This document shows, piece after piece, positions 19,290 through 35,447 of a DNA stretch of 64,000 nucleotides. The stretch spans positions 2,844-66,843 of the forward strand of contig CAJVXN010000001.1 in the NCBI GenBank assembly GCA_913009335.1, given 5' to 3'. Within the stretch, counting starts at the first letter, position 1, and every line of letters begins with the position of its first letter. The notes beneath the pieces are model-generated. The model was not told the DNA's origin, did no database searches, and worked only from the letters and a program-made list of their open reading frames with translations. This stretch comes from an uncultured bacterium (lineage in GTDB: Bacteria > Omnitrophota > Gorgyraeia > Ghiorseimicrobiales > Ghiorseimicrobiaceae). Both the position numbers and the translations under genes were made by a program.

Positions 19290-19323
19290 AAAAAAAAGAC
19301 ACTTATGCATTGATAAGTGTCTT
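19290..19323 (-). terminator. Intrinsic terminator-like hairpin in the porin leader
   Basis: Minus strand reads aagacacttat-caatgc-ataagtgtctt running into a T-tract. Confidence 0.7.
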
Positions 19324-19373
19324 AATGCGCTTTATCCTAGAAAGATATTTTTCTGTCATATCAATTATTTGCT

Positions 19374-19391
19374 TCGTGAAAGATATCACTA
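19374..19391. promoter_or_regulatory. Rex operator
   Basis: TCGTGAAAGATATCACTA, just downstream of the promoter at 19407-19434. Confidence 0.6.
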
Positions 19392-19406
19392 AATTTCTAT
19401 GCGTTT

Positions 19407-19434
19407 ATTTTACCACTCTACTCTATGCTGTCAA
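19407..19434 (-). promoter_or_regulatory. sigma70 promoter for porin-arrBA
   Basis: TTGACA-16 nt-TAAAAT with a TGn extension. Confidence 0.7.
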
Positions 19435-20853: not shown

Positions 20854-21835
20854 AATCGGCTAAATCGCCTAACGCATCACGATAACTGGAGCGAGAAAGC
20901 TTACCTAAGCTGTGTTTTGATTTATTAATAGAGGACAAGGCTTCTTCTTTTGTTTTTATAAATATTGCACTATCCTTTATCTTGTCTTTTATCTTATCCA
21001 TTATTTCTTTACTAATATTACGTTTGGCTAAATGCTCTTTAAGTTCTTTCCTGTCTTTAGCAGCCAGCGAATTAAATAAATCATAAAGCGGAAGAGTTAT
21101 TTCTCCTTGCGCGATATCCTGCCCTCCAGACTTACCTAATATAGACTTAGCAGCTATAATATCTAAATAGTCATCGACAACCTGAAAAGCAATACCAAAA
21201 TTTACTCCGTAATTATTTAAGGCAGTGTATTTCTCCTTATCGTGATTACCAGCAATAAGCGCGGCACCTTTACAACAGGCCGATATCAATGCTGCTGTTT
21301 TTTTATTAACTATTACCATATACTCTTTTTGCGGAAGGTCAAAATTATCTCGTTCGAAAATCTGAAAAAGCTGGCCCTCGCACATTGCCCTCGCGGCCAC
21401 TGCGACACAGCCTAAGACATCCGGATGCCCGCATTTCGCGACCAGTTCAAACGCCTTTGTGTAGATATAATCCCCAAATGCGATAGAGACATCTTCGCCC
21501 CACTTTGCGTGTATTGTTTGTTTATTGCGGCGCGTTAAAGAGTTATCAATAATATCATCATGTATAAGGCTCGCGGTATGTATAAGTTCGATTGCCGCTG
21601 CCATGCGAATCAATAAACTTAAATCTTTTGATTTTAATTTTCCGTTTGCTGCTGCGTGCGCTGAAAGCATTACCAGAGCCGGCCTAAGACGCTTGCCTCC
21701 CCAGCCCAATAAATAATCATTAATCCGGCATAATGAATTATATTTTGTGTTAAGATGACTCCTTAAGAGATCTTCTACTCTACAAAGATCTTCTGTAATC
21801 GGCTGGTAGATATTTTTCAGCTTTTTCATCTTCAT
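20819..21835 (-). CDS. Polyprenyl diphosphate synthase (HepT/IspB-like)
   Basis: GGKRLRP, HDDIID...RR, KTA and FQVVDDYLD motifs. Confidence 0.93.
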   Translation of the reverse strand: MKMKKLKNIYQPITEDLCRVEDLLRSHLNTKYNSLCRINDYLLGWGGKRLRPALVMLSAHAAANGKLKSKDLSLLIRMAAAIELIHTASLIHDDIIDNSLTRRNKQTIHAKWGEDVSIAFGDYIYTKAFELVAKCGHPDVLGCVAVAARAMCEGQLFQIFERDNFDLPQKEYMVIVNKKTAALISACCKGAALIAGNHDKEKYTALNNYGVNFGIAFQVVDDYLDIIAAKSILGKSGGQDIAQGEITLPLYDLFNSLAAKDRKELKEHLAKRNISKEIMDKIKDKIKDSAIFIKTKEEALSSINKSKHSLGKLSRSSYRDALGDLADYVIERGFGACL

Positions 21836-21926
21836 GCTATTCAGAGGAATGTACCTTCCTTTCCCTTGAAGGAAGGGTGCTATTCAGAGGAATGTACCTT
21901 CCTCTCCATTAAAGGAAGGGTGCTAT
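21835..21926. repeat. 43-bp tandem duplication; each unit carries a ccttcc...ggaagg hairpin
   Basis: tgctattcagaggaatgtaccttcct(ttcccttga/ctccattaa)aggaaggg at 21835 and 21878, then tgctat. It spans from the menA stop region to the prenyl synthase start. Confidence 0.9.
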
Positions 21927-22847
21927 CCGATCCAGAATAAAACCAAGGCTTAAAACAATACCTATAATAAGATGTAATTTTATTGTTGCGGCGTTTGAAA
22001 AGAGTAATCGTTGAGTATTATTAAAATTTTTTGATACATTTTTTGCAGCTTTATAGGCTAAAGGAATAGTAAAAAGTGAAAACAGGCAATATGCGGGAAT
22101 AATTTTATAAATTACAGTGAGAAGAATAAAGGAATAAGTTAAAATCAATAAAATTTGATACAGATAAACTGCTCTTGCCTTTCCCAGTAAAACAACTACA
22201 GTATTCTTGCCTACCGCCTTATCTGCCTGATAATCCGGAAACTCATTAATATAAAGGATTAGGAGCACTAGAATACCGATAGGGACCGCGCTTACAACCG
22301 GCACCATACCTAATGTTTTTGCCTGGACATAATAACTACCCAAAACAACAAGCGGGCCAAAACATAAACCCACAACTATCTCTCCCATTCCACGATAGCC
22401 TATCTTCAAAGGAGTCGCAGTATAGAAAATTGCCATGGCGACACCGGCTAAACCCAAGAATAGAACCACATTGGTTTTAAGCTGAAAATTAAGATACAAT
22501 CCAATAATACTTCCGAGGAAAAAAGATAAAAACGCAAACAAAGAAACATTACGGGGAGACATTTGGCCGTCCTGGATAACACGGCTTCCTCCGCTAAAAG
22601 GAGTAAAATTCAAATTCGCTTCATCATTGCCGCTTTTATGATCAAAATAGTCATTAATAAGATTTGTACCTATATTAATAGCAGCAATACCTAAAAGAAC
22701 AAGGCAGAAAAAATACCAGTTAAATAATCCGGTTTTATACCAGGCAATAACCGAACCAAGTAAAACTGGCACAAGCGTCGCAGTTAAAAAAGGAACCCTT
22801 GCTGCTTTTAGATAAATTGATATCCGACTAAAATTAAGCTTGCTCAA
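21909..22847 (-). CDS. menA: 1,4-dihydroxy-2-naphthoate polyprenyltransferase (UbiA family)
   Basis: NLINDYFDHKSGND, FSGGS, GYRGMGE and NEFPDYQAD..VGKNT motifs. Confidence 0.88.
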   Translation of the reverse strand: MSKLNFSRISIYLKAARVPFLTATLVPVLLGSVIAWYKTGLFNWYFFCLVLLGIAAINIGTNLINDYFDHKSGNDEANLNFTPFSGGSRVIQDGQMSPRNVSLFAFLSFFLGSIIGLYLNFQLKTNVVLFLGLAGVAMAIFYTATPLKIGYRGMGEIVVGLCFGPLVVLGSYYVQAKTLGMVPVVSAVPIGILVLLILYINEFPDYQADKAVGKNTVVVLLGKARAVYLYQILLILTYSFILLTVIYKIIPAYCLFSLFTIPLAYKAAKNVSKNFNNTQRLLFSNAATIKLHLIIGIVLSLGFILDRIAPFL

Positions 22848-23391
22848 TTTTTATTGTACCCGTTGGGCAAATATAAGCACAGGCGCCGCAGCCAATGCAA
22901 ACATCGTTAATCTTATCAAAAGGTGTGCCTACTTTTCTATGCAATCCACGCTGTTTAAAGCTTATAGCGCTGACCCCTACAATTTCACGGCAGGCACGAA
23001 CACATAAACCGCAAAGGATACAATTACCTTTATCTTTCGGTTTAATGCGTAACCTGGGTAATCCATATTCTTTAGCAAGCTCCTGAAGCCTTTCTGTCTC
23101 AGGGCTCATGGCTAATAAAAGCTCCATAACGATTTTTCGCGTACGCCTCACCCTCTCGCTATCAGTCTTAATAATCAATCCCTCTGTAACCTTGTATAAA
23201 CAAGAGGCCTGAAGACTAGGCCTTGCCCCTCCTACAATCTCAACAACGCAAAGACGACACGCGCCATAAGGAGATAATTCTTTATGATAACATAAAGTAG
23301 GAATCTTTATACCTGCCTCAAGTGCTGCCTCTAATATACTCTTTCCATCATCTACTTCTAAATTCTTATCATTAATTATAATGTTAACCAT
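22834..23391 (-). CDS. Stand-alone NuoG/HydA-N-terminal-like Fe-S protein (2Fe-2S plus 2x4Fe-4S) with no catalytic domain
   Basis: IPTLCYH...GACRLC...SC, CILCGLCVRAC and CIGCGACAYICP; only 185 aa and no H-cluster motifs. Confidence 0.85.
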   Translation of the reverse strand: MVNIIINDKNLEVDDGKSILEAALEAGIKIPTLCYHKELSPYGACRLCVVEIVGGARPSLQASCLYKVTEGLIIKTDSERVRRTRKIVMELLLAMSPETERLQELAKEYGLPRLRIKPKDKGNCILCGLCVRACREIVGVSAISFKQRGLHRKVGTPFDKINDVCIGCGACAYICPTGTIKIEQA

Positions 23392-23409
23392 GAATACACC
23401 TTTTAGTTT

Positions 23410-23868
23410 TTATTTCTTACAATCTACGCAAGAATCGAAATGATATTTATCATCCCCTTTTTTATAATCATAAACAAACCGTATTGCTGGATAAGCCGTA
23501 ATTAAACTAGCCAGAGTTTCTAAAATATCACCTACGGGCTTAAGATCCGGAGAATTAAGTTTAAAAATTGCTCTTATTATAGTACCCTGTCCCAGTTCTG
23601 AATTTATTTTTAAAGTACCCCCTGTATCCTGGGCTGCTTGAGCAAATAACGAAAGACCTAGTCCAATTCTTTTGCCGTCTTTCGTGGTGAAAAAAGGATC
23701 GAGGGCTTTTTTACGCATATCTTCATTCATCCCCCTCCCATCATCCTTAATAGAGATAATTAGCTCTTCCCTCAACGTATCTTCAAAAACCTCTATACTT
23801 ATATTCTTTGCATCTGCCCGAACCGCGTTTTCTGTTATATCAAGTATATGTAGAGATAAATCCTGCAT
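23410..23868 (-). CDS. HATPase_c ATP-binding protein (kinase-like), typical of hydrogenase operons
   Basis: DLSLHILDITEN, DDGRGM, DPFFTTK and GLGL motifs. Confidence 0.85.
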   Translation of the reverse strand: MQDLSLHILDITENAVRADAKNISIEVFEDTLREELIISIKDDGRGMNEDMRKKALDPFFTTKDGKRIGLGLSLFAQAAQDTGGTLKINSELGQGTIIRAIFKLNSPDLKPVGDILETLASLITAYPAIRFVYDYKKGDDKYHFDSCVDCKK

Positions 23869-23874
23869 AAGAGG

Positions 23875-24603
23875 CTAAAAAATAACTTTTCTTCCTTCTG
23901 TGACACTAAGCGCCATTTTAAATTCTGAAAAGCTTAAATCTTCCAATAAAAACTTCGTATGTGCCCTTCCAACATCAGCCAAGAAATGAGCATCCGAAGA
24001 TTTGATAAGCGGCAGATCGTAATTTTTATAATCCGCGACTTTTTCTGAGTTATAATTTACAGATAGCTCCAAAGCATCTAGCTGTAAGCCTTCAGGGATA
24101 AAACCTAATTGACTAATAACGCTGAATGTTTGTTTATCAATATGCGAAGCAATGGCTATACCGCCGAAATCATGAACCAGCTTAACTATCCTTCTTAATG
24201 TTAAATCGGTTGAACCAATCAACAACTTATTATTACTGCCGCCTGATTTATCGTACTCATCCACAATCAATTGTTTCCCGAAGAACTCTTCATTGTTTTC
24301 TCCGGATAAATTTTTATAAACAATATCCTGTATTTGCATTAAGGTTTTGTTCTTATCAAAAAAAGCTAAGATATGTACTTCTTCGGATGAGGTTATCTCT
24401 ATACCCACAAAGACTTTTAGCCCCTCTCTTTCGCCTGCCTTCCTTACAGCAGCTGCGTTCTCTGCTGAGTTATGATCGCAGATTCCAATTACATCCAGAC
24501 CGCGTTCTTTCGCCTGCTTAACAATTGACCTCGGCAACATTTCTAAATCACCACACGGAGACAAACAAGTATGGATATGCAAATCCATCTTAAACTCCTT
24601 CAT
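23875..24603 (-). CDS. PHP-domain phosphoesterase
   Basis: DLHIHTCLSPC, DHN, H.D and SSDAH motifs. Confidence 0.88.
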   Translation of the reverse strand: MKEFKMDLHIHTCLSPCGDLEMLPRSIVKQAKERGLDVIGICDHNSAENAAAVRKAGEREGLKVFVGIEITSSEEVHILAFFDKNKTLMQIQDIVYKNLSGENNEEFFGKQLIVDEYDKSGGSNNKLLIGSTDLTLRRIVKLVHDFGGIAIASHIDKQTFSVISQLGFIPEGLQLDALELSVNYNSEKVADYKNYDLPLIKSSDAHFLADVGRAHTKFLLEDLSFSEFKMALSVTEGRKVIF

Positions 24604-24650
24604 CCCGTCCGTCCTTCCTAAGCTTATTCCCTCCTTTGGGAAAGGCGGGG
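24604..24650. repeat. Intergenic hairpin of the gtccttcc...ggaagg family
   Basis: Shares gtccttcct..aagcttat.cc.tccttt.g.aa.ggc with the hairpin at 26636-26691. Confidence 0.65.
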
Positions 24651-25004
24651 CTAAGCATTATCTTGGGACCCCTTAATACCCAGAGCATACAACTTACCGA
24701 CTAGTTCAAATGCCGGCATCTTACTTACTAGAATCGGCACATTCTCACTCTCTGCTTTTTTAACAGTATCTTCTTCAGGCTCTCTATTGTTTATCAATAC
24801 AATGCCGGATAGCCCTTTCATGCTAGCCACTGCCACAACATTACTATGAATCTGTAAGGTAATCCATAAATCACCTTCTCGCGCATTAGCTAGCACATCA
24901 CTTAAAAGATCGCTTGCATACCCCCCTGTTACTTCCCTATCTAAATCCGTAGCCGTACCTATTACCTCTAAGCTCATTTTTTCTACTATTTCTTTTAATT
25001 TCAT
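24651..25004 (-). CDS. DRTGG-domain protein
   Basis: GGYASDLLSDVLA, WIT.Q and NVVAVA motifs. Confidence 0.85.
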   Translation of the reverse strand: MKLKEIVEKMSLEVIGTATDLDREVTGGYASDLLSDVLANAREGDLWITLQIHSNVVAVASMKGLSGIVLINNREPEEDTVKKAESENVPILVSKMPAFELVGKLYALGIKGSQDNA

Positions 25005-25012
25005 TTTTCACC

Positions 25013-25272
25013 TCAATGAGTCCGCCATTGAATCAGTGGCGGGCGAATTGATCCCGCCTGTCCCGCGTTTTTTGGCGGGGTTGAGTGTATCAAAATTATC
25101 GCACCCTCTGGAATTTCACTCCGTGAAATTCCGAGGACTTTAGTCCCGGGAATTCTTCTAATTCCACGGGGAGAAAATTTTGATACTTCTTATCCTCTGC
25201 AATTCAGAGAATTGCGAGGACTTAATCCCTGAAATTTCTCCGAAATTTCTAGGGGCGAAACGGGATTTCATT
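25013..25272. repeat. Large nested palindromic element built from multiple hairpin modules
   Basis: G-A arm at 25013-25051. atcccg...cgggat encloses gtatcaaaatt...aattttgatac and two gaggactt-agtccc twin-hairpin modules. Modules are shared with 55346-55515. Confidence 0.85.
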
Positions 25273-26193
25273 TTATCCGGCTTTCATATTAATACATATC
25301 TTAAGACGTGTACCTTTACCAACGGTCGACTCTATATCTAATTTATCAGCACATTTTTTAATATTACATAGGCCCATGCCAGCGCCAAAACCAAGATTCC
25401 TGATCCATTCAGGCGCGGTAGAATAACCCGGTTTTAATGCTTGGGCAACATCGGGGATACCCGGACCGGAATCCGTAACATGAATTTGTATCTTATCTGA
25501 CTGCACTCGAACAGATATCTCTCCGCCACTGGTATAAGAAACAACATTTATCTCCGCCTCATATGAAGCAATGGCTGCCCGACGGACAATCTGAGGGTGA
25601 ATACCTAGACGCGTCAACGTTTTTCTTATTCCGCTGGATACCTCACCTGCCCGATTAAAATCTTTACCTTTGACAAAATACTCAAACCTCAAAATGGTTT
25701 TATCAGCTATAATATCTTCAAATATATGACTCGCGCGATAACGATGAATTTCTTCTTCATGATAATCAATCTCTAGCTCACGAAGCAAACTTTCAATAAT
25801 ATCACCTTTAGTAATTACCCCCAGCAATTTACCGGTTGCCCGATCAATCACAGGAAAACGCCCAAACCCTAACTTGTCAAGCTTACCAATCGCATGAACC
25901 AGCGGCTCATCATCATACAGGGTTTTAATCGATCTGGTCATCCTGCTTTCTATGGGGCAATCTTTTCCTCCTTCCGCGAGCCACTTAATAAAATCTTCAA
26001 TACTTATTATTCCTACTAATTTATCATGCTCAACTATGGGTGTACCGGAGATACGATTAGACCTTAGTGTCTCTCCTAATTCGCTCATTAAGATATCCGG
26101 ACTAGAGCGAATTATATCCTTTCTCATAGCATCACGTACCTTTAACTCGTAAACTAATTCCTGAACTTTGGTAATCTTTTTTTCATTATTCAT
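25273..26193 (-). CDS. CBS-pair plus RsbT-like anti-sigma/Ser kinase (HATPase) fusion
   Basis: Two CBS repeats, then YEAEIN, DSGPGIPD, GYSTA and GFGAGMGL motifs. Confidence 0.85.
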   Translation of the reverse strand: MNNEKKITKVQELVYELKVRDAMRKDIIRSSPDILMSELGETLRSNRISGTPIVEHDKLVGIISIEDFIKWLAEGGKDCPIESRMTRSIKTLYDDEPLVHAIGKLDKLGFGRFPVIDRATGKLLGVITKGDIIESLLRELEIDYHEEEIHRYRASHIFEDIIADKTILRFEYFVKGKDFNRAGEVSSGIRKTLTRLGIHPQIVRRAAIASYEAEINVVSYTSGGEISVRVQSDKIQIHVTDSGPGIPDVAQALKPGYSTAPEWIRNLGFGAGMGLCNIKKCADKLDIESTVGKGTRLKICINMKAG

Positions 26194-26543
26194 TTTAACC
26201 CATCACAACTAAGCAAACCTTCTTTATATAACCTGCCGCAACAGGCATACATGGAAAACTCGCTCACTAAAACCGGGATCTCTTTCTCTTGAGCTAATTT
26301 CAAGGTTTTTTCTTGCGGCTTTTTGCCACGCACAAAACAAATCGCAATTACTTCCGCCATCTCCGCGGTACGCACAACCTGAGGATTAGTAAGGCCGGTC
26401 AAAAGTACGGCATCTGCCTTAATAAATGCCAACACATCGCTCATTAAATCAGACCCACAGGCCATTTTTACATCTTTGTCTAAAAATTTGTCTCCGTACA
26501 ATACTTTTGCGTTTAATACCTCTTTTAACTGTTTTAATTTCAC
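26190..26543 (-). CDS. DRTGG-domain protein
   Basis: ACGSDLMSDVLA, LTGL.N.QVVRTAEM and VRGK motifs; GTG start. Confidence 0.87.
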   Translation of the reverse strand: MKLKQLKEVLNAKVLYGDKFLDKDVKMACGSDLMSDVLAFIKADAVLLTGLTNPQVVRTAEMAEVIAICFVRGKKPQEKTLKLAQEKEIPVLVSEFSMYACCGRLYKEGLLSCDGLK

Positions 26544-26691
26544 CCCGTCCTTCCTTTCTAAATTTTATACTTCACTTAAAATTATATTTATACCCGCTCT
26601 ACCTTATTTATCGCTCTACTTTAAGAAGGGCGGAATGAACCCAGTCCTTCCTTCTCAAGCTTATCCCATCCTTTAGGAAGGGCTGGGTTCA
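26539..26691. repeat. Two adjacent inverted-repeat elements filling the nuoF-like/DRTGG intergenic space
   Basis: ttca..ccgtccttc...gaagggcgg..tgaa (26539-26639) and tgaacccagtccttcct...aggaagggctgggttca (26636-26691). Confidence 0.7.
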
Positions 26692-28500
26692 TTTTGAATA
26701 CGCAGCTCCTATCTTACAGACTTTTACACAGATACCGCATTTAGTACATTTATTTAAATCTATTTCGTGCGGTTTTTTTACCATACCGGAAATTGCATCA
26801 GCAGGACATTCACGCCCACAAAGCGTACACCCCGTGCATTTATCAGCATTAATATAATACCTTACTAACGGTTTACATACCCCCGCGGGACACTTTTTAT
26901 GTTTTATATGATCCAGAAATTCATCGCGGAAATGCCGCAGAGTGCTTAATACCGGATTTGGCAGAGTTTGGCCCAGACCACACATTGAAGCATCTTTTAT
27001 CGCAATACAAAGCTCCTCTAAATAATCTAAATCTGACTCCTCTCCCTCTCCGTTAGATATTTTATCAAGAATTTCAATAAGTGTTATTGAACCTTCCCGG
27101 CAAGTAGAACACTTCCCGCAAGATTCATCACTTGTAAATGTGAGAAAAAACTTTGCGATATCAACAATACAGGTATCCTCATCCATTACCACCATTCCAC
27201 CTGAACCCATTATAGCTCCCACTTCCTTAAGACGTTCATAATCTACGGGAAGATGGAGAAGACGCGCGGGAATAAACCCTCCGGATGGACCTCCGGTCTG
27301 AACCGCTTTAAGCTTTTTATTATTAGGTATACCAGCGCCAATATCATAAACTATCTCGCGTAAGGTTATCCCCATGGGGACCTCAACTAATCCGGCATTA
27401 TTTACATTGCCGGCAAGAGAGAAAACTTTTGTCCCACGGCTTGTCTCTGTGCCTATCTGAGAAAACCACTTAGCCCCCCAACTTATTATCATGGGAACAT
27501 TGGCCCAGGTCTCTACATTATTAATATTAGTAGGGGCTCCCCAGAGACCGGATTGCGCAGGAAATGGAGGTTTCTGTGTTGGTTCAGGAACTATACCTTC
27601 CAAAGAATGAATCAAGGAAGTTTCTTCTCCGCAAACAAAGGCACCCGCACCCTCAAAAATTTCAATATCAAAACTAAAATCACTACCAAATATATTTTCT
27701 CCTAAGAGGCCATATTCCTTTGCAAGCTTTATCGCAGTCTTCATCCTGGCGATAGCTAATGGATACTCAATTCTTAAATATATATATCCATCCGTTGCCC
27801 CCATGGCATATCCACCTATGCACATACCCTCAATGATAGAATGCGGATCAGCTTCAACTATGCTCCTATCCATAAAAGCGCCTGGATCTCCCTCATCAGC
27901 ATTACATATAACATAACAACGAAGATTTTTGCTTTGTTTTCTTTTCTCTAATACCTGACTGCGGCATATATCCCATTTTTTACCTGTTGGAAATCCAGCA
28001 CCGCCTCTACCGCGCAGGCCCGCATCGGTAATTTCCTTTATTACGTCTTCAGGGCTCATACCGGTTAAAACTTTTGCCAGCGCTTTATAACCATCATTAG
28101 CGATATATTCATCAATGCTTTCGGGGTCTATTATACCGCGATTCCTTAAAGCAATAAGTCTCTGATCCTTAAAAAACGGAATATCACTTATTTTAGGAAT
28201 AGGGATATCTTTTCCTTCGGGCACATACATAAGCTCCTTTACCGGCCTACCCTTTAAGAAATGTTCCTGGACTAAATTGGGAATATCTTTCTCTTGTATA
28301 TATTGGTAGAAGATACCGTCAGGCTGGACTATAAGTATCGGCCCTTTAACACAAAGACCGCTTGCTCCAGTTTGTACAACTAAAACATCATTTTCAAGGC
28401 TCTGTTTTACGATTTCAGCCTCAAGGGCATTCTTTATTTTTAATGCACCATTAGATATACAATTGGTACATGTGCAAATCATTGCATGTAAACGCTGCAT
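26689..28500 (-). CDS. NuoF-like FMN/NADH-binding subunit of the HydB/HndC/BfuB type
   Basis: GRGGAGFPTG, NADEGDPGAFMDR, GEETSL, GGPSGG and ESCGKC..CREG motifs; N-terminal thioredoxin-like domain; H..KCPAGVC and C-terminal 2x[4Fe-4S]. Confidence 0.93.
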   Translation of the reverse strand: MQRLHAMICTCTNCISNGALKIKNALEAEIVKQSLENDVLVVQTGASGLCVKGPILIVQPDGIFYQYIQEKDIPNLVQEHFLKGRPVKELMYVPEGKDIPIPKISDIPFFKDQRLIALRNRGIIDPESIDEYIANDGYKALAKVLTGMSPEDVIKEITDAGLRGRGGAGFPTGKKWDICRSQVLEKRKQSKNLRCYVICNADEGDPGAFMDRSIVEADPHSIIEGMCIGGYAMGATDGYIYLRIEYPLAIARMKTAIKLAKEYGLLGENIFGSDFSFDIEIFEGAGAFVCGEETSLIHSLEGIVPEPTQKPPFPAQSGLWGAPTNINNVETWANVPMIISWGAKWFSQIGTETSRGTKVFSLAGNVNNAGLVEVPMGITLREIVYDIGAGIPNNKKLKAVQTGGPSGGFIPARLLHLPVDYERLKEVGAIMGSGGMVVMDEDTCIVDIAKFFLTFTSDESCGKCSTCREGSITLIEILDKISNGEGEESDLDYLEELCIAIKDASMCGLGQTLPNPVLSTLRHFRDEFLDHIKHKKCPAGVCKPLVRYYINADKCTGCTLCGRECPADAISGMVKKPHEIDLNKCTKCGICVKVCKIGAAYSK

Positions 28501-28511
28501 AACTTATATCC

Positions 28512-28651
28512 TCTAATGACGACACAAGTTATAAAGCTATAAACTATATAACTTGTACGTCGGAATTAGACCCTTGACATCTTTGATGTCAAGGGTAAGT
28601 TCGGACAGACACCTTACGTCATTAACATTCCGTAAGCTGTGCCCTCACTTA
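28512..28651. repeat. Three-part palindromic element: + strand G-A arm, central hairpin, - strand G-A arm
   Basis: The central acccttgacatctttgatgtcaagggt (28570-28596) is identical to 29101-29127 and is flanked by oppositely oriented TGA...GAA hairpins. Confidence 0.9.
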
Positions 28652-29032
28652 CAGCACTCTCTCGCTGCCGACTGCCAAGGCGTATTCTTTAACAATATTT
28701 CCGCCAATTACGTGTTTTTCTAAAATTTCTTTAGCCTTATCAGGCGTTAAATCTACGTATTTAACCGGCGGTTCATTCTTCATTTCAACTGTTACCATAG
28801 GTTCACGACTGCAAAACCCCGCACAGCTGGACAATGTTAAAATCACATCTTTTAAATCGCGCTTTTCAATTTCTTCCATAAGGGCGGTCATAACAGTTCT
28901 AGCACCTGCGGCAATTCCACATGTACCCATATGCACAATCACTCTTGCGCGAGACTCTCCCTCGCGCAGATTTATTGTTTTCTTCATCTTCGCAGCTATC
29001 CTATCTAAATCTTCCGGTTTTAATTTTGGCAT
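28649..29032 (-). CDS. Thioredoxin-like (2Fe-2S) ferredoxin, HndB/HydD-like
   Basis: VHMGTCGIAAGAR and SSCAGFCSREP motifs; ATG at 29032 with a GAAGGAG SD. Confidence 0.87.
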   Translation of the reverse strand: MPKLKPEDLDRIAAKMKKTINLREGESRARVIVHMGTCGIAAGARTVMTALMEEIEKRDLKDVILTLSSCAGFCSREPMVTVEMKNEPPVKYVDLTPDKAKEILEKHVIGGNIVKEYALAVGSERVL

Positions 29033-29042
29033 AATTAACTCC

Positions 29043-29183
29043 TTCAATGACGACAAAGGTTATGGAGTTAAAAACGACATAACTTTTGCGTCGGAATTGA
29101 ACCCTTGACATCTTTGATGTCAAGGGTAGATTCAGCCAGCAAGCTTACGAAGCGAAATCGTTCGTAAGCTTGGGCTTCATTTA
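29043..29183. repeat. Second three-part palindromic element
   Basis: Same layout as 28512-28651, with different arm sequences but conserved pairing. Confidence 0.9.
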
Positions 29184-30130
29184 TACTTCTTTAAAACGTC
29201 ATCTACCTTGCTTATTTTCACATATCCATAAATATCATCATTAACAGATACTGCCGGTGATTGACCACAACAACCAATACAGTTAACCGTATCAAGGCTA
29301 AAGTTCAAATCTTTTGTCGTCTCACCGACTTTTATACCTAATTTATTCTCTAAAGAATGTAATATTTTATTTCCGCCTTTAACATAACAAGATGTCCCCA
29401 TGCAAACCCTAATAATATTTTTGCCTCTTGGCTTAAGGCTAAAAGCATTATAAAAAGTAGAAACGCGAAATACATGCGTAAACGGAAGTTCCATAAGCTG
29501 CGATACATACCAAAGGACATTTTCAGGAAAATAACCATAGGTACGATCAATTTCCTGTAAAATAAAAATAAGAGCTCCCTTGGTATTCCTGTAAGCATCA
29601 ACCATCTCTTCAACTCTGGACTTTTCTGACTTATCAAGTTTGGTCACAAATCGCTCATCATCTTCTGCTTCTTTCTTTAAATCAGTTATATTAAATATCC
29701 ATCTTAGTTTAGGATCATAGCTACGGTTCTTTACTATATTTCTAATAGTAGTTAAATAATCCGGGATGTATATATTGATATCATTTTTTACCTTAACCTG
29801 ACAAGCAAGACGCATATTATCATGTTTTTCCTCGCGGCTCATAAATATTTCCTCGGTAGGAAGTATTTCACCGCCGCCGTTTAATACTTTTATCTTGCAA
29901 TACCCACAAGTTGCTTTACCACCGCAAGAAGATGAAACATTTATATCATTCGCGGTAAGATCGGCAATTAAATAATTCCCGCCTTCAACAACAAACTCCT
30001 TCTCCTGGTCTTCCTGCTTAACGGTTATCTTACATTCACCATAATTAATAAGCACGCGGTCGGCGATGGTAAGCAAAACCGTTACCACGAGAAGAATCCC
30101 ATTCATTACTATTACAGGTAAAAAATTCAT
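29177..30130 (-). CDS. Fusion: NqrF N-terminus (TM anchor plus 2Fe-2S) and a NuoE/HndA-like 2Fe-2S domain
   Basis: TM helix, then VSSSCGGKATCGYC...GGGEILPTE...RLACQVKV (NqrF-like). No FAD/NAD domain; instead LQEI...GY.P...TFY..F..VCMGTSC...NCIGCCG (NuoE-like). Confidence 0.87.
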   Translation of the reverse strand: MNFLPVIVMNGILLVVTVLLTIADRVLINYGECKITVKQEDQEKEFVVEGGNYLIADLTANDINVSSSCGGKATCGYCKIKVLNGGGEILPTEEIFMSREEKHDNMRLACQVKVKNDINIYIPDYLTTIRNIVKNRSYDPKLRWIFNITDLKKEAEDDERFVTKLDKSEKSRVEEMVDAYRNTKGALIFILQEIDRTYGYFPENVLWYVSQLMELPFTHVFRVSTFYNAFSLKPRGKNIIRVCMGTSCYVKGGNKILHSLENKLGIKVGETTKDLNFSLDTVNCIGCCGQSPAVSVNDDIYGYVKISKVDDVLKKYK

Positions 30131-30154
30131 AATAAATAAACTTTGATAAGGAAA

Positions 30155-30742
30155 CTATTGAATCCTGACCATCCCTCCAAAACCTAAAAACGCTAAAGCA
30201 ATAATTCCCGCGATAATCATGATAATGCCCGGGCCGCGAAGCCCCTTAGGAATATCTGAAACTAATCTTAATTTTTCATTTATCGCTGCAACTATCAAGA
30301 TTGCCAGCATCCAGCCTACGGCTGAACCAAAAGCAAAAACAATAGTGGCTAAGTATGAATAGCTTCTTAGCACCATAAAAAGGGAGACTGCCAATACTGT
30401 ACAATTTACGGTTATCAGCGGAAGAAAAATCCCGAAAGAAGCCTGCAAAACGACAAAAAATTTCTCCATAATCATCTCAACCAGCTGAACGCTTGCGGCA
30501 ATAACAATGATAAAAACGATATAGTAAATAAGCTCACATCCTGCCGGAACAAGAATTAAATGATAAATAGGCCAGTTAATAGCTGCCGTAAGCGTTACTA
30601 CAAAAATTACGGCAATACCCATACCAAAAGCAGTCTTAAAACTTTTAGATAAAGCTATAAAAGGACACATGCCTAATAAATAGGTAAGCGCAATATTATG
30701 CGTAAAAACAGCAGCAATAAAAATAGTTAATAAATTACCCAT
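30155..30742 (-). CDS. nqrE: NqrE/RnfA membrane subunit
   Basis: LGMCPF and LPLITVNC motifs. Confidence 0.85.
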   Translation of the reverse strand: MGNLLTIFIAAVFTHNIALTYLLGMCPFIALSKSFKTAFGMGIAVIFVVTLTAAINWPIYHLILVPAGCELIYYIVFIIVIAASVQLVEMIMEKFFVVLQASFGIFLPLITVNCTVLAVSLFMVLRSYSYLATIVFAFGSAVGWMLAILIVAAINEKLRLVSDIPKGLRGPGIIMIIAGIIALAFLGFGGMVRIQ

Positions 30743-30744
30743 AA

Positions 30745-31374
30745 TTATTCCTTGGACTCAACTCCTGCGATAGTTCTTGTTATCCACAAATAAATACTCA
30801 ATACAAAAAATGCCCCCGGAGCCATAGCCATCATTACCCAATTTGTCCAACCATCAGGCATGACCCTAAAACCTAAAATAGTACCAAAGCCTAGCGACTC
30901 GCGCACAATAGCAATAATCACCAGTGTATACGAATAGCCCAATCCAACACCCAATCCATCCATCATAGAATGCGTTATTTTATTCTTACTGGCAAAAGCC
31001 TCGGCTCTTCCCATGATAATACAGTTGGTAATAATAAGCCCGACATAAGGACCGATAGCTTCACGTATTACAGGATAAAAAGCCTGCAGGAAACGGTCTA
31101 CAATAATTACAAAAGAAGCAATGGCTATCATGTAAGTTATAATACGCACACGAGCAGGTATAAAATTCCTTAAAGCGGAGATAGTAAGAGCCGTAAAGAT
31201 TAAAACAAAGGTAACGCCGGCACCCATAGCAATGGCATTTTCTACTTTATTTGTTACGGCTAAACCGGAACAAATACCTAAAAGCATACAAAAAACAGGA
31301 TTATCGCGCCAAAGGCCAATCATCATAACCTTAAACCCTTTCGCGCGTAGAAGTTTTTTTATGTTCTTTGCCAT
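30745..31374 (-). CDS. nqrD: NqrD/RnfE membrane subunit
   Basis: NP...LGICSGLAVT, GLIITNCIIMGRAE and APGAF motifs. Confidence 0.87.
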   Translation of the reverse strand: MAKNIKKLLRAKGFKVMMIGLWRDNPVFCMLLGICSGLAVTNKVENAIAMGAGVTFVLIFTALTISALRNFIPARVRIITYMIAIASFVIIVDRFLQAFYPVIREAIGPYVGLIITNCIIMGRAEAFASKNKITHSMMDGLGVGLGYSYTLVIIAIVRESLGFGTILGFRVMPDGWTNWVMMAMAPGAFFVLSIYLWITRTIAGVESKE

Positions 31375-31377
31375 ATT

Positions 31378-31950
31378 CTAGTTTTCCTTAATAAGTGCTA
31401 AATACTCTCCCACCTGATTATTTATTAATTCTTCAAATGCCTTACTCGTCATTGTAGCTCCTGTAATCGCATCCACTTCATTTTCTGCCTTTGCCTTACC
31501 ATGAGGCACAATTTTTAAAGCTGGGAATACTTTTTTACCCTGAAACTTAGCTAAGTATTCTTCTTCGCTAATCCTGCCCCCTAAACCGGGAGTCTCCTCC
31601 TGATGTATAATAGTTATCCCTTTAATACTTTCAAAATCCGGATTAAAAGCAATAATTCCTTTAATCGGACCCCATACACCCGAACCCTTAATTCCAAATG
31701 CAACCTCCCTTGAGAGAGATAGATAGAATTCCTTATTTTCTTTTTGTACTACTTCAATATTATCAGAGAATATATCCTCTAAGTTTTCCTTGGTGTAAGA
31801 AATATCAAAAACATCAAGTACGCTTCTCTTCTTCTTAAGCTCCTCATTCTTTTGGATGATGGGAGTCGTATAATGATTAATCGCAACAAGCAACGTAGTA
31901 AAGAAGCTTCCCAGAAGTACAACGAAAATGATAATTTTTAATACTTTCAT
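31378..31950 (-). CDS. nqrC: NqrC/RnfG FMN-binding subunit
   Basis: GSGVWGPI and ETPGLGG motifs; flavinylation motif DAITGATMTS. Confidence 0.85.
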   Translation of the reverse strand: MKVLKIIIFVVLLGSFFTTLLVAINHYTTPIIQKNEELKKKRSVLDVFDISYTKENLEDIFSDNIEVVQKENKEFYLSLSREVAFGIKGSGVWGPIKGIIAFNPDFESIKGITIIHQEETPGLGGRISEEEYLAKFQGKKVFPALKIVPHGKAKAENEVDAITGATMTSKAFEELINNQVGEYLALIKEN

Positions 31951-31955
31951 TTATA

Positions 31956-33053
31956 TTAGGTGGTTGGTTTTAATTTACCAGTTACCTTCTTAGGTTCTTT
32001 ATATTTTACTGCAAGCACAACATGATCAATTAAAGGCGCAAAAGCATTCATTAAAAGTATGCTGAACATAACCCCTTCAACATAACCGGAAAGCGCACGA
32101 ATTAAAACTGTTAATAATCCTAGCAATATCCCCCCTACCCATTTCCCTTCCTTGGTAAAAGGTGAAGTTACCGGATCAGTAGCCATAAACATCGCGCCAA
32201 AAAGAAGCCCGCCGGTTAAAAGCTGAAAACTTGGCGGTGCAAATTTTAGGGGTGCTAAATTATTGCCGATAAGTGAGAATATAGCTACCGAAGCTAAATA
32301 GGAAAAAGGTATGCGCCAATTAACTATACGTGTTATAATCAAAAATATTCCGCCGAGAATTATTCCCAACCTAAAGACTTCACCGATACATCCCCCGCTA
32401 AACCCAAACAGTAAATCACTAAATGATGCTAAGACATTCTCACTACGAAAAGCATTTAAAGGTGTCGCAGCTGTTATGGCATCCACGCCAAATTTACTAA
32501 ACCCCCCTAAACCCCCGATATAAGGCTTGGGCCAACCTACGGTCATTATCAAAGGAAAGCATATAGTTAAAAAAATCCTGCCGACAATCGCCGGGTTAAA
32601 TATGTTTTTACCTGTTCCGCCAAATACTTCTTTTCCAAAAAATACACCAAACATAACCCCAAGGGCTACAACCCATAAAGGAATAGACGGCGGAAGCAGT
32701 AACGGAAAAATTAATCCCGTAACCAAAAATCCTTCATGTATTTCTTTCTTTCGCGCAACCGCAAAAGCAACTTCTACCACACCGCCGGCTATATAAGAAA
32801 CAAGTATGACTAAGATCACACGCAGTCCCCAAAAATAAACCGCTGCAGCTACAGCAGGAAGAAGAGCAATAATCACAAAACTCATATAACGTTTTATATC
32901 AAGATAATCGGTTATGTGAGGAACCGTATTTAGCTCATCCGTGCCAAAAAGAGCTCCATCCAGAGCAGTTAATACCGGTTTAAATTTACTTAGAAATTTA
33001 TTCTTCTCTACTAGCTTAAAACTTATATCCAACGCCTTACGGACTATCTTCAT
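31956..33053 (-). CDS. nqrB: NqrB/RnfD membrane subunit with an NqrB-type N-terminal extension
   Basis: PHITD..DIKRYM, EGFLVT, KEVFGGTG.N.FNPA, DAITAATPL (FMN site) and FMATDPVT motifs. Confidence 0.88.
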   Translation of the reverse strand: MKIVRKALDISFKLVEKNKFLSKFKPVLTALDGALFGTDELNTVPHITDYLDIKRYMSFVIIALLPAVAAAVYFWGLRVILVILVSYIAGGVVEVAFAVARKKEIHEGFLVTGLIFPLLLPPSIPLWVVALGVMFGVFFGKEVFGGTGKNIFNPAIVGRIFLTICFPLIMTVGWPKPYIGGLGGFSKFGVDAITAATPLNAFRSENVLASFSDLLFGFSGGCIGEVFRLGIILGGIFLIITRIVNWRIPFSYLASVAIFSLIGNNLAPLKFAPPSFQLLTGGLLFGAMFMATDPVTSPFTKEGKWVGGILLGLLTVLIRALSGYVEGVMFSILLMNAFAPLIDHVVLAVKYKEPKKVTGKLKPTT

Positions 33054-34555
33054 AATTTAGTAGTTATTCCTTTGTATTCTTTAAGCCCTTTTAACTTAAA
33101 ATGCGGTAAAATGCTGCTCGACCGTTCGATTCCCTCCATGGCCAATTTTTTCTCGCCTTCTTTTATAAGTTCAAGAAGGGGAATTTTCGAAGGACACACA
33201 TAGCTGCATAAACCACATCCAATACAATTAAAAATCTTAAATCTTACTAAAGAATCATCGATTATATTATTTTTTACATACTTACCCAATAAATGCGGAA
33301 TTATCTGCACAGGGCAAACTTCTTCGCAATAATTACAGCTTATGCATGGCCTCAGTTCTCCGTGAATATTCGTATCCAGGGTCTTATCACAAAACGGAAA
33401 AACACTTGATGCAAACGTATTAGAATAAGCATCGCGCTTAACGCCCAAGCGAAGGAATGAGAAAAACTCTCTCTTATTATTCTCCGGCAAAGCAATAATC
33501 TTAGAAGTTGCCTTAGTTACAGGTAAAGATAAATCTGTAAGTTTATCACCCACAAGTGTATTTTCTAAAACAATTCGCGAACTTACATCAGTTCTTAAAT
33601 AAGATTTAAGAATATCCGCTATAGGCGTACCTATCCTCACCTTCAAATGCGGCGTATCATTAAACCCCGGTCCGCAGATGGCAATAGTACGCTCAATTAA
33701 AGGCTTCCCTTTTACTACTGCCTCATATACGGAAAGTATTGTCTGAGCGTTTAAAACAATTACCCCGAGATTAGCGGCATAATAGCCAAATGGAAACTTC
33801 TCACCCAAAACAGTCGCAACAAGCATCTCATCATACCCCTGAGGATACTTTGGCTCTAAAGAAATAATATTGATAAAGCCATATTGAGAAACAGCCTCAG
33901 ATAACTTTTCATTAATCTGCATATCAGTCTTACTTAAGGCAAGGTAAATATTAGCCTGAGGCATAAAAGCATGCAAAATCCGTAATCCTTCTATGTAATC
34001 TAAAACCCTTTTTTCGCCCAATAATAATTCTTGAGAAAGATTATAAACGTCAAATCCGATTGCAGGAACAATAATACTTCTAACATCTTTAGGGGTAATG
34101 ATTGAGCTTTTAAATTTTGTGGGAATTCCTGATTTATCTAAAGAAGTTACGCCAGCTAAATACAATATGCTTTCAATTTCCTCATTTTTTAGTTTCGCCC
34201 AATCAGAAGTAAACCCTTTAACTTTTTTACAATCATCTGCTTTATCTTTCCGGGTAGATATTCTTACTATTTGAGTTTCATGCCCCAAATAGTTTGAAAG
34301 CTTTATTTCTTTAACTACCCCAGATACAGATGCATGCACAGGGCTTGAGACATTTGAATCATCCCTTCCGATAATCTGTCCTGCGACTACAATATCACCT
34401 TCCTTTACCAAAGAAACAACACCCATCCCAAAACCTTGCTTTAAAGGAATAAGCACTTCATTAGGAATATCTTGCGTAGTCAGCATATCACGCGGACAAC
34501 CCTCAATTCGCCTGAAACGATACCCGCCCTTGAATGTATATTGTTTTTTCTTCAT
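33050..34555 (-). CDS. RnfC/NqrA-like subunit with two [4Fe-4S] motifs and degenerate FMN/NADH motifs
   Basis: PVHASVSG and KYPQG present; CISCNYCEEVCP and CIGCGLCSYVCP present; AGVTSLDKSGIPT replaces the RnfC G.GGAGFPT motif. Confidence 0.82.
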   Translation of the reverse strand: MKKKQYTFKGGYRFRRIEGCPRDMLTTQDIPNEVLIPLKQGFGMGVVSLVKEGDIVVAGQIIGRDDSNVSSPVHASVSGVVKEIKLSNYLGHETQIVRISTRKDKADDCKKVKGFTSDWAKLKNEEIESILYLAGVTSLDKSGIPTKFKSSIITPKDVRSIIVPAIGFDVYNLSQELLLGEKRVLDYIEGLRILHAFMPQANIYLALSKTDMQINEKLSEAVSQYGFINIISLEPKYPQGYDEMLVATVLGEKFPFGYYAANLGVIVLNAQTILSVYEAVVKGKPLIERTIAICGPGFNDTPHLKVRIGTPIADILKSYLRTDVSSRIVLENTLVGDKLTDLSLPVTKATSKIIALPENNKREFFSFLRLGVKRDAYSNTFASSVFPFCDKTLDTNIHGELRPCISCNYCEEVCPVQIIPHLLGKYVKNNIIDDSLVRFKIFNCIGCGLCSYVCPSKIPLLELIKEGEKKLAMEGIERSSSILPHFKLKGLKEYKGITTKL

Positions 34556-34613
34556 ATTATATGTTTAGCCCCGATAAACTTTAGCTACACAAACTACAAA
34601 ACCTAACAAGCGA

Positions 34614-34701
34614 TTGTACTGCGTTTCGCACAGCACCCCACTGTATTTACCCAATGGTTGCACTGCGCTTTACGCAGCACCCCACTGTATTTATCTAATG
34701 G
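34614..34701. repeat. Imperfect 44-bp tandem duplication upstream of the nqr-like operon
   Basis: ttg(t/c)actgcg...cagcaccccactgtattta...aatgg at 34614 and 34658. Confidence 0.85.
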
Positions 34702-34734
34702 TTGTTAAATAGCTCACAGTGAAATCAATCACGA
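34702..34734. promoter_or_regulatory. Two overlapping degenerate Rex operators
   Basis: TTGTTAAATAGCTCACAG (34702-34719) and CAGTGAAATCAATCACGA (34717-34734). Confidence 0.55.
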
Positions 34735-34747
34735 CCTTAGGAAAAAA

Positions 34748-35383
34748 TTAACTTTTTGATTTAGTTAAAAAATAGGCTAATCTCTCAAGCTCGATTGAAA
34801 GATCTATATTAAGCAGACCTACCGAAGGCGGAACCTGTGGTCTGATAGGAGCAAAATTAAGTATAGCTTTGACTCCGGATTTTATTAAAATATTTATTAC
34901 CTCCTGCGCGCCTTCACCGGGTGTGGCAACAATACCAATGGAAATATTACGTTCCTTTACAGTATTTCCTAATTCACTAATATCCTGTATCTTAATTCCT
35001 TCCAACGTCTTACCAACTCTACGCAAATCATTATCAAAGGCACAAATAATCTTAAATCCTTGTTTCTCAAATCCTTTATAAGAAAGCAAAGCTGTGCCTA
35101 AATTACCAACACCGGCTAAAACAACATCCCAATTTTTATCCGTACCAAGAATTGATAAAATAGCTTTTTTTAATGCCTCAACCTCATACCCCTTACCGGG
35201 TGTACCAAATTGGCCAAAATAGGTTAAATCACGTCTAACTTGAGCAGCCGTAAAGTTAGTTAATTTCGAAAGCTCATCAGAAGAAACATAATCTTTACCG
35301 CGCGATTCTACTAAAACCCGATAATACAACGAAAGTCTCGGAACTGCTGCTTGAGGAATTTTATTAATCATATAGAGACCCAT
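34748..35383 (-). CDS. rex: Redox-sensing transcriptional repressor Rex
   Basis: RLSLYYR, QVRRDL.YFG.FG.PGKGY, GVGNLG.AL and ILNFAP motifs. Confidence 0.96.
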   Translation of the reverse strand: MGLYMINKIPQAAVPRLSLYYRVLVESRGKDYVSSDELSKLTNFTAAQVRRDLTYFGQFGTPGKGYEVEALKKAILSILGTDKNWDVVLAGVGNLGTALLSYKGFEKQGFKIICAFDNDLRRVGKTLEGIKIQDISELGNTVKERNISIGIVATPGEGAQEVINILIKSGVKAILNFAPIRPQVPPSVGLLNIDLSIELERLAYFLTKSKS

Positions 35384-35429: not shown

Positions 35430-35447
35430 TAGTTAAATGTTTCACAA
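35430..35447. promoter_or_regulatory. Rex operator (autoregulation)
   Basis: Minus strand TTGTGAAACATTTAACTA, downstream of the rex promoter. Confidence 0.7.

Follow-up and report, generated by a model that had tools for sequence, protein, structure and literature searches.

In a 64,000-nucleotide stretch of the genome of an uncultured bacterium of the phylum Omnitrophota (contig CAJVXN010000001.1; hereinafter the window, to whose positions all coordinates refer unless another contig or locus is named), we identified an operon (20819-35383) that combines the genes for an Nqr-like ion pump with those for a soluble module resembling the NAD(H)- and ferredoxin-dependent enzymes of the Bfu family. 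The two are linked through a single polypeptide in which the membrane anchor and 2Fe-2S domain of NqrF are fused to a NuoE domain. Judging from sequence comparison, the module is of HydB/HydC/BfuA-type ancestry, the pump is on the side of Nqr rather than of Rnf, and the link between the two, in fused or split form, is conserved next to Nqr-type genes. The proteins probably form one complex. In the reading that we favour, although we put it somewhat short of an even chance, the Bfu-type module would oxidize NADH together with reduced ferredoxin and feed the electrons into the pump, with reduction of menaquinone and export of ions.

The NqrF-anchor/NuoE fusion protein

Residues 6-130 of the 317-amino acid (aa) fusion protein match positions 5-128 of the nqrF model TIGR01941 (E 1.9e-32), and residues 174-317 match the NuoE family PF01257 (E 1.4e-46). 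Among the proteins of solved structure, the anchor part matches Vibrio cholerae NqrF (8a1t_F), residues 8-130, with E 5.9e-21, and the best match overall is between residues 171-316 and HydC of a bifurcating hydrogenase (8a6t_C, E 2.2e-46). The protein thus consists of a transmembrane helix (approximately residues 4-27), the NqrF-type 2Fe-2S domain, a conserved tail or linker (approximately 120-148) and the NuoE/HydC domain; given that only positions 5-128 of the 405-position nqrF model are covered, there is no FNR-like domain for binding flavin adenine dinucleotide (FAD) and NADH. The ligands of the NqrF-type cluster (C69, C75, C78 and C110) and those of the NuoE cluster (C243, C248, C284 and C288) are invariant in all 27 aligned members of the family. 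An AlphaFold2 model of the fusion has a mean predicted local distance difference test score of 62.4 and is confident only in the transmembrane helix and the NuoE domain.

A search of a large protein collection for relatives of the fusion yielded 882 matches at E <= 0.001, and the two domains of the predicted architecture, PF00111 (Fer2) and PF01257, occur together in each of the 120 best of these (294-333 aa, 54-100% identity). Among the matches listed, the named sources are Planctomycetota, Latescibacterota, Poribacteria and Desulfobacterales, and the closest genome record is a metagenome-assembled genome of Omnitrophica with 73% identity. A first-pass annotation of the window, made from the sequence alone, had named a sequencing artefact as one circumstance that would undo its reading. 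Such an artefact, as well as one of assembly, is ruled out because a 1239-base contig from a run of another study is identical to positions 28567-29805, a span that covers the NuoE domain, the linker and the end of the 2Fe-2S domain; the 120 listed relatives and the invariant cysteines speak to the same effect. Few species genomes encode the fused form: in the phylum of the window, the 150 best of 357 matches from 401 genomes included two genomes with it (G000 and G318), and, in the phylum of G401, it was found in one of 301 genomes at E <= 1e-70.

Organization of the operon

All genes of the operon are on the minus strand, and their products were identified by Pfam and NCBIfam profile searches of the window proteins. 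In the 5' to 3' direction, the order is rex, five nqrA-E-like genes, the fusion, an HndB-like gene, NuoF, five accessory genes, the small Fe-S protein, menA and a polyprenyl synthase gene, with a cytochrome gene downstream of the operon. The binding domains of flavin mononucleotide are denoted FMN.

34748-35383, minus strand: Rex-type redox-sensing repressor (Put_DNA-bind_N and CoA_binding)
33050-34555, minus strand: A subunit, 501 aa (RnfC_N, degenerate Complex1_51K, 4Fe-4S dicluster)
31956-33053, minus strand: B subunit, NqrB-like (NQR2_RnfD_RnfE family)
31378-31950, minus strand: C subunit, NqrC/RnfG-like (FMN_bind, TGAT motif)
30745-31374, minus strand: D subunit, NqrD/RnfE-like (Rnf-Nqr family)
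30155-30742, minus strand: E subunit, NqrE/RnfA-like (Rnf-Nqr family)
29177-30130, minus strand: NqrF-anchor/NuoE fusion protein, 317 aa (TIGR01941 and PF01257)
28649-29056, minus strand: HndB/HydD-like thioredoxin-fold protein, 135 aa
26689-28500, minus strand: HydB/BfuB-type NuoF, 603 aa (thioredoxin-like 2Fe-2S, FMN, SLBB, 4Fe-4S, C-terminal 2x[4Fe-4S])
26190-26543, minus strand: DRTGG-domain protein, accessory or regulatory
25273-26193, minus strand: protein with CBS pair and HATPase domain, anti-sigma-type kinase-like
24651-25004, minus strand: second DRTGG-domain protein
23875-24603, minus strand: PHP-domain phosphoesterase-like protein
23410-23868, minus strand: small HATPase_c protein
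22834-23391, minus strand: small BfuA/HoxU-like Fe-S protein, 185 aa (2Fe-2S and 2x[4Fe-4S])
21909-22847, minus strand: MenA, dihydroxynaphthoate polyprenyltransferase (TIGR00751, 135.9 bits against a cut-off of 102.15)
20819-21835, minus strand: polyprenyl diphosphate synthase
19435-20853, minus strand: multihaem cytochrome c, downstream of the operon

The menA gene begins within the last bases of the gene for the small Fe-S protein. The genes named in the first-pass annotation were all recovered where it had placed them, on the minus strand: the pump genes are colinear (A, B, C, D, E and the F-type anchor fused to NuoE), the NuoF translation contains the motifs that had been quoted, the presumed NuoG/HydA fragment lacking a catalytic domain is the 185-aa Fe-S protein, and menA, which had been noted to follow, scores above its model cut-off. 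That gene list was correct as far as it went, the omission being the five accessory genes between NuoF and the Fe-S protein, and the overall architecture that it described (fusion, bifurcating-type NuoF and Nqr-like pump) stands; the association of the module with Nqr-type genes is, in addition, conserved in related loci.

Fused, split and canonical loci

We compared the window (L001) with 79 metagenome loci that encode an NqrF-type anchor and were annotated by BLAST against the window proteins; these 80 loci are mutually related, and the counts drawn from them are not independent. In 49 loci, the only form is the canonical NqrF, that is, anchor plus FNR domain; 13 loci encode the fusion; 12 encode a stand-alone anchor of 149 aa followed by a separate NuoE gene; one, L026, which is the closest relative, encodes a canonical NqrF plus the fusion; and the sequences of the remaining five end after the anchor. 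The split point lies directly past the tail IPDYLT...RW, which is conserved throughout the fused/split family and absent from canonical NqrF, and the separate NuoE gene starts 16-21 bases past the anchor gene or overlaps it by 8-22 bases.

The gene neighbourhood of the Bfu-type loci (26 in number, fused and split) is consistent. An NqrE-like gene (or NqrF) is immediately upstream in 19 of the 19 loci with at least 700 bases of room; NuoF is at most three open reading frames (ORFs) away in 12 of the 13 loci with room and, in the 13th (L050), comes after two accessory genes; and a gene for a small (<260 aa) BfuA-like Fe-S protein is downstream in 12 of 12. The accessory genes are retained in 7/26 of these loci. 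MenA or a polyprenyl synthase is adjacent in six of the eight Bfu-type loci longer than 9 kb, compared to 4 of 17 canonical-NqrF loci.

At L026 (the same as L002, in whose coordinates the genes occupy 2483-4534), the canonical NqrF (362 aa; Fer2, FAD_binding_6 and NAD_binding_1) and the fusion are adjoining genes of one operon, an arrangement that suggests two alternative input subunits for one pump. The first-pass annotation, which recognized the fusion correctly, missed the canonical NqrF beside the fusion in this closest relative.

The soluble module

The NuoF protein aligns end to end (residues 3-599) with HydB of Acetobacterium woodii (7q4v_B, E 8.4e-238), and further matches are the B chains of 7t2r, 8a6t and 7p5h and the NfnB chain 9n5u; by comparison, NuoF chains of complex I align only with residues 120-535 or so. 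The families PF01512, PF10531 and PF10589 and Fer4 families were matched, which amounts to the BfuB domain set as defined by Schut et al. 2022 (PMC9304861), whose text lists the Nuo51 FMN, SLBB, NuoF 4Fe-4S and ferredoxin-type 4Fe-4S domains. According to the same text, clusters B2-B5 are missing from non-bifurcating homologues, and the Syntrophomonas wolfei enzyme is likewise described, in the text available from PMC11406978, as lacking the extra BfuB clusters. In the family described here, the FMN/NADH motifs, the N3-type cysteines, the KCPAGVC motif and eight C-terminal cysteines of NuoF are conserved, and both the N- and the C-terminal HydB cluster domains are retained in 11 of 13 NuoF proteins. 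The N-terminal 2Fe-2S domain of the window NuoF has four cysteines in a shifted pattern, CTCTNC...GASGLC compared to the usual CxGTxC...GCxGxC, a pattern that recurs in L026, L029 and L031 and in the soluble enzyme of the Planctomycete locus L003.

The small Fe-S protein contains 12 cysteines that are invariant in all 11 family members and has no catalytic domain. Its best solved match, over residues 2-181, is the 247-aa BfuA-type chain 9mqx_A (1.3e-41), with which it shares the absence of the segment carrying the His-ligated cluster. The HndB/HydD-like protein has only three cysteines, and whether it binds a cluster is uncertain. The accessory set of DRTGG, CBS-HATPase, PHP and HATPase genes also precedes the NuoE-HndB-NuoF-HydA genes in the Halanaerobiales loci L005, L006 and L010; this shared set points to the origin of the module from a HydABC-type operon.

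Several variants of the module were observed. At L031 (1290-4373) and L057 (10323-14159), the C-terminal part of NuoF is GltD-like (Fer4_20 and Pyr_redox_2) in place of the two 4Fe-4S clusters, and at L057 NuoE, NuoF and the GltD-like domain are joined in one 1278-aa protein, encoded beside a stand-alone anchor. A soluble enzyme related to the module is encoded at the Planctomycete locus L003 (9365-18817). It shares the N-terminal cysteine variant of NuoF and is accompanied by the same set of accessory genes; its BfuA, 1084 aa long, includes an HdrA-like flavoprotein part, and its NuoE is extended at the N terminus by an FAD/4Fe-4S region.

Affinity of the pump to the Nqr side

In hidden Markov model (HMM) searches, the scores of the pump subunits are intermediate between the Nqr and Rnf families. 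The B subunit obtains 303 bits with the nqrB model (cut-off 414), 282 bits with a second Nqr model (cut-off 349.9) and 278 bits with rnfD; the D subunit, 213 bits with nqrD (cut-off 235) and 186 bits with RsxE; and the E subunit, 196 bits with nqrE (cut-off 247.6) and 185 bits with rnfA. The C subunit scores 103 bits against the Nqr cut-off of 144, and the F-type fusion, 113 bits against the nqrF cut-off of 295.

Phylogenetic trees of the B subunits included 150 representatives, 112 of them labelled by NCBIfam, together with the B subunits of the metagenome loci; a careful tree was built for 61 rows under LG+G4 and a quick tree for 110 rows. In the careful tree, 11 RnfD rows, including the second RnfD of the same genome, are separated from the 50 other rows with 100/99 support, and all loci with an NqrF-type anchor, whether canonical or Bfu-type, fall on the non-RnfD side. 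The window B subunit pairs with that of L026 (100/99) and then with that of the canonical-NqrF locus L074 (99/98), and the three sit within a clade of 12 rows (100/98) in which canonical and Bfu-type loci are intermingled. A separate clade (99/97) unites six further Bfu-type loci, of which three are fused and three split, and L057, with its NuoE fused to a NuoF-GltD protein, belongs to yet another (96/94); the quick tree concurs. On this tree, with the Bfu-type loci distributed over several B clades, the Bfu input has joined the pump lineage more than once or else has moved between lineages. The possibility that the pump is simply an Rnf is ruled out by the 100/99 separation in the B tree and by the lack, in the A subunit, of the FMN/NADH motifs of RnfC.

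Several details of the sequences bear out the affinity with Nqr. The B subunit retains the 'GG' and the RKxExxEGF segment of helix III of V. cholerae NqrB, from which RnfD of Clostridium tetanomorphum differs; according to a figure legend in the literature, these glycines bear on quinone binding. The N-terminal extension of NqrB, associated with quinone binding in the first-pass annotation, is there in part: 41 residues precede the point where RnfD starts, and some 48 residues of the N-terminal region of V. cholerae NqrB are absent. The B subunit contains the TAAT-type motif DAITAAT, and the C subunit contains TGAT, both of which are presumably flavinylation motifs, and ApbE, of the flavinylation machinery, is encoded in the genome. 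Both cysteines of the D subunit and both cysteines of the E subunit align with the cysteines of V. cholerae NqrD and NqrE, respectively, as expected for ligands of the intramembrane 2Fe-2S cluster.

An A subunit between RnfC and NqrA

The A subunit scores 255.1 bits with the rnfC model, above its cut-off of 245.95, and 158 bits with nqrA (cut-off 450), and its best solved match is RnfC (7zc6_C, 1e-50). Compared to this RnfC, GMGGATFPT is replaced by LDKSGIPT and NAAECEPY by PAIGFDVY. In a comparison of 16 A subunits (that of the window and 15 others, from 14 loci that represent both types of input), GxGG[AG]xFP and [AG]E[CGS]EP are absent throughout, whereas the canonical RnfC of the same genome has both, and all 16 share an insert of about 35 residues with the canonical NqrA (L105) that is absent from canonical RnfC. 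Two complete CxxCxxCxxxC motifs occur in 15 of the 16 proteins (in the window protein, as CxxCxxCxxxCP), L105 alone, from the HMM-true NqrB clade, being without them. Accordingly, the label 'nqrA-like' that the gene had been given is apt with regard to the NqrA-type insert and the vanished FMN/NADH motifs, and falls short with regard to the two 4Fe-4S motifs, which are kept, and the rnfC cut-off, which is passed.

An A subunit bearing the Fe-S motifs was also observed at L026, L029, L032, L048, L050, L053, L057, L061, L074, L079, L082, L093 and L094, and most operons of the clade have a canonical NqrF. The family of A subunits of this type, about 500 aa long, is large and is represented in Omnitrophota and Elusimicrobia records, among others. 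Reyes-Prieto et al. 2014, in the part of the text available to us, propose the origin of NqrA from RnfC by loss of the NAD and FMN sites and of the cluster cysteines; the A subunits described here look like a half-way state of that Rnf-to-Nqr transition.

Genome context, quinone supply and regulation

The genome assembly is 92.6% complete, and our negative results at the genome level refer to this assembly. The catalytic domain of Fe-hydrogenase, the NuoH subunit of complex I and a full-length canonical NqrF were not found in it. A second, canonical rnfC-D-(G)-E-A-B locus is present (C15:35329-40169) and includes an RnfB-like gene, the only such gene found; there is none for the RnfB polyferredoxin in the window operon. 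Besides MenA and the polyprenyl synthase, the genome encodes MenG/UbiE, and neither MenB nor the futalosine-pathway family PF02621 was found, so the naphthoquinone head group may be scavenged. The first-pass annotation, which noted that menA follows, missed that the genome encodes only the last steps of menaquinone synthesis.

A gene for Rex is found upstream of the operon also in L026, L029 and L074, and regulation of the operon by Rex can be surmised. Rex-box-like inverted repeats were detected upstream of the A gene (34702-34719, 3 mismatches) and upstream of rex (35430-35447, 2 mismatches); the scan as a whole did not exceed chance, as 8 matches compare with an expectation of 4.45 and this count was reached in 9 of 100 shuffles.

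Directly downstream of the operon, beside genes for molybdenum cofactor biosynthesis, is a respiratory-looking block (13697-20853, minus strand) that encodes an 860-aa molybdopterin oxidoreductase, a 4Fe-4S protein, a NarJ-like chaperone, TatC, a porin-like protein and the multihaem cytochrome c; this block is consistent with quinone-linked anaerobic respiration. Approximately 2.4 kb past the window end (C1:69233-75653), there is a cluster of genes for NuoE (168 aa), NuoF (1059 aa) and a NuoG-like protein (891 aa). Elsewhere in the window, a 432-aa ORF (851-2149, minus strand) combines a HupF/HypC domain (residues 1-64) with a radical SAM domain (147-307). It adjoins a HycI protease gene and four genes for a NiFe hydrogenase that includes FAD/NAD and Fe-S subunits (2348-6753). 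An IS110-family transposase (58258-59478, plus strand) is the sole clear plus-strand gene of the window.

Proposed mechanism and alternatives

In the mechanism that we tentatively favour, the NuoE domain of the fusion would tether two soluble proteins, the HydB-type NuoF and the small BfuA-like Fe-S protein, to the membrane. NADH would reduce the FMN of NuoF, and the electrons could then travel along the Fe-S clusters of NuoF and of the BfuA-like protein to the NqrF-type 2Fe-2S cluster of the fusion, whose tethered domain would swing to the NqrD/E cluster, as in Nqr. From there, the path would presumably lead to NqrC-FMN, NqrB-FMN, riboflavin and menaquinone, with Na+ or H+ exported in the course of electron transfer. 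As Schut et al. 2022 (PMC9304861) propose in their text for Nuo-Bfu, reduced ferredoxin would serve as an additional donor; we suggest this role because the HydB-type cluster domains are kept and because a canonical NqrF is encoded next to the fusion in the closest relative. The retention of both in one operon also makes the fusion input look non-redundant. We venture a broader conjecture, to which we would give a little less than even weight, namely, that Nqr-Bfu is a third membrane-bound kind of Bfu enzyme that jointly oxidizes NADH and reduced ferredoxin, reduces menaquinone and is built on a chassis intermediate between Rnf and Nqr, with the Fe-S clusters of RnfC still present in the A subunit, onto which the input modules, FNR-type NqrF, HydBC-type and NuoF-GltD-type, were swapped several times. 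Such a chassis would be a living form of the Rnf-to-Nqr transition postulated by Reyes-Prieto et al. 2014 in the text available to us.

Several observations weigh against this proposal. No subunit attains the Nqr equivalog cut-off of NCBIfam, the ligand pattern in the N-terminal 2Fe-2S domain of NuoF is shifted, and in two of 13 loci (L031 and L057) a GltD-like domain substitutes for the C-terminal ferredoxin-like domain of NuoF. Neither MenB nor PF02621 is among the genes found. Ferredoxin could already be oxidized by the separate canonical Rnf, and, by our arithmetic, joint oxidation would pump fewer ions than Rnf and Nqr working in series. Finally, the clusters kept in 15 of 16 A subunits are unexplained by a pure NqrB quinone site, so that there could be another acceptor.

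What we consider the principal alternative, in itself rather unlikely although by no means far-fetched, is a plain NADH:menaquinone pump, in which the module merely replaces the FAD domain of NqrF, the extra clusters are vestigial or structural, and ferredoxin has no role. Such a pump would supply the entry point for NADH that a genome with neither complex I nor canonical NqrF needs; it accords with the rex gene upstream of the operon, with the presence of a separate Rnf that can take ferredoxin, and with the replacement of the ferredoxin-like domain in some NuoF proteins of the family. However, 11 of 13 of these proteins retain the HydB cluster domains at both termini, whereas the characterized non-bifurcating homologues described in the texts cited above have lost such clusters, and in the closest relative a plain NADH pump would be redundant with the canonical NqrF beside the fusion. 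True bifurcation, the central idea of the first-pass annotation, in which two NADH would deliver one electron pair to menaquinone via the pump and the other to ferredoxin, seems to us improbable. The BfuB/BfuC-type core appears to have all cluster domains, and gene order links it to a high-potential acceptor, but the energetics are unfavourable: with the potentials in the text of PMC9304861 (NADH, approximately -280 mV; ferredoxin, approximately -500 mV; menaquinone, -74 mV), we calculate a downhill step of ~206 mV per electron against an uphill step of ~220 mV, leaving nothing for ion export, and with standard potentials the balance is marginal. Moreover, in the known Bfu enzymes, as described in the same text, NAD(H) and ferredoxin are coupled on one side of the reaction. 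A better fit is obtained if NADH is oxidized either alone or jointly with reduced ferredoxin.

The acceptor, too, might be other than a quinone, with the 4Fe-4S clusters of the A subunit passing electrons to a soluble or peripheral redox protein or, in the extreme, back to the Bfu module, which would make the system an Rnf-like ferredoxin:NAD+ pump. The retention of the Fe-S motifs by 15 of the 16 A subunits compared within the clade, the score of the A subunit above the rnfC subfamily cut-off and the failure to find MenB and Mqn genes in the genome would all fit this scheme. Nevertheless, an Fe-S-bearing A subunit of the same kind is also found together with canonical NqrF, which oxidizes NADH, so NAD+ is not the general acceptor; the A subunit is devoid of FMN/NADH motifs, the NqrB-type Gly-Gly segment is conserved, and MenA, polyprenyl synthase and MenG are all present, so we judge a non-quinone output to be quite improbable, marginally more so than bifurcation. 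Least credible by far is the notion that the operon brings together two unrelated neighbours, a pump whose F subunit has been lost and a soluble enzyme of the Bfu type whose catalytic partner has been lost. This could be argued from the accessory genes, which are those of soluble HydABC operons, and from the near relative of the module at L003, which is soluble and has an HdrA-like BfuA. Against it, a single polypeptide comprises the anchor and NuoE in the window and in all 120 relatives listed, the association with Nqr-type genes is seen in 19 of 19 loci with room, and the tail of the anchor is conserved only in the fused/split family.

Relation to known systems

The Na+-NQR of V. cholerae (7xk3 and 8a1t) has the same A-F gene order as the window operon, its chains are the best solved matches of the B, D and E subunits, and the likeness extends to the NqrB Gly-Gly segment, the four cysteines of D and E and the NqrA-type insert. 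By contrast, the FNR-like FAD/NADH domain of NqrF has its place taken by the fused NuoE; NqrA is free of redox cofactors whereas the window A subunit contains two 4Fe-4S motifs; and, in addition to the missing ~48 residues of the NqrB N-terminal region, the quinone would be menaquinone. With Rnf (7zc6, 9eri and 8ahx), the operon shares the C-D-G-E-A order and, in the A subunit, the best solved match, RnfC, with both 4Fe-4S motifs, but it has no RnfB, the A subunit is without the FMN/NADH motifs of RnfC, and the B subunit is outside the RnfD clade.

With regard to the soluble module, NuoF and the NuoE part are homologues of HydB and HydC of the HydABC/BfuABC enzymes (A. woodii 7q4v, Acetomicrobium mobile 7t2r, Thermoanaerobacter kivui 8a6t and Thermotoga maritima 7p5h), and the HndB-like and accessory genes also occur in the HydABC loci of Halanaerobiales. 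Unlike these enzymes, the system described here has no hydrogenase domain or gene, its BfuC is joined in one protein to a membrane anchor and one more 2Fe-2S domain, and its partner would be a membrane pump. The small type-2 BfuA of Wor-Bfu (9mqx, a code that occurs in PMC12318220) resembles the window Fe-S protein, but the partner there is a tungsten oxidoreductase or polyferredoxin wire and here, an NqrF-type 2Fe-2S shuttle. Comparable in organization are Nuo-Bfu and Mbh-Bfu, predicted by Schut et al. 2022 (PMC9304861) and the only membrane-bound forms in the passages of that work considered here, in which a BfuBC core likewise sits on an ion-translocating membrane complex and, in the case of Nuo-Bfu, a quinone is the proposed third substrate; the membrane partner in the window operon is of the Rnf/Nqr type instead, and the attachment is through the fusion of BfuC to the NqrF anchor.

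In the openly accessible literature searched, we found no description of an NqrF-NuoE fusion or of an Nqr-Bfu complex. The main text of Schut et al. 2022 (PMC9304861), apart from its large supplementary table, contains 'Nqr' not at all and 'Rnf' once, and it is possible that Nqr-Bfu is listed among the unassigned clades of that table. Likewise, the available part of a 2025 RNF/NQR review does not mention 'NuoE' or 'hybrid'. The 'NQR/RNF-like' system in the available text of PMC8238504 is a different one, with NqrB fused to an NAD-binding domain.

If the function proposed here is correct, the operon would connect the Rnf/Nqr redox pumps with the Bfu enzymes of NAD(H) and ferredoxin, two fields that have been studied apart. 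It would also represent a new route by which anaerobes bring low-potential electrons into the quinone pool with conservation of energy and, in this bacterium, the sole NADH:quinone entry point found in the genome. The fused and split forms provide a handle for purification, structural work and assays. Furthermore, the family can be viewed as a natural experiment on the origin of Nqr from Rnf, in which the A subunit lost the NAD/FMN site and kept the Fe-S clusters, and the slot of the F subunit takes at least three kinds of input modules.

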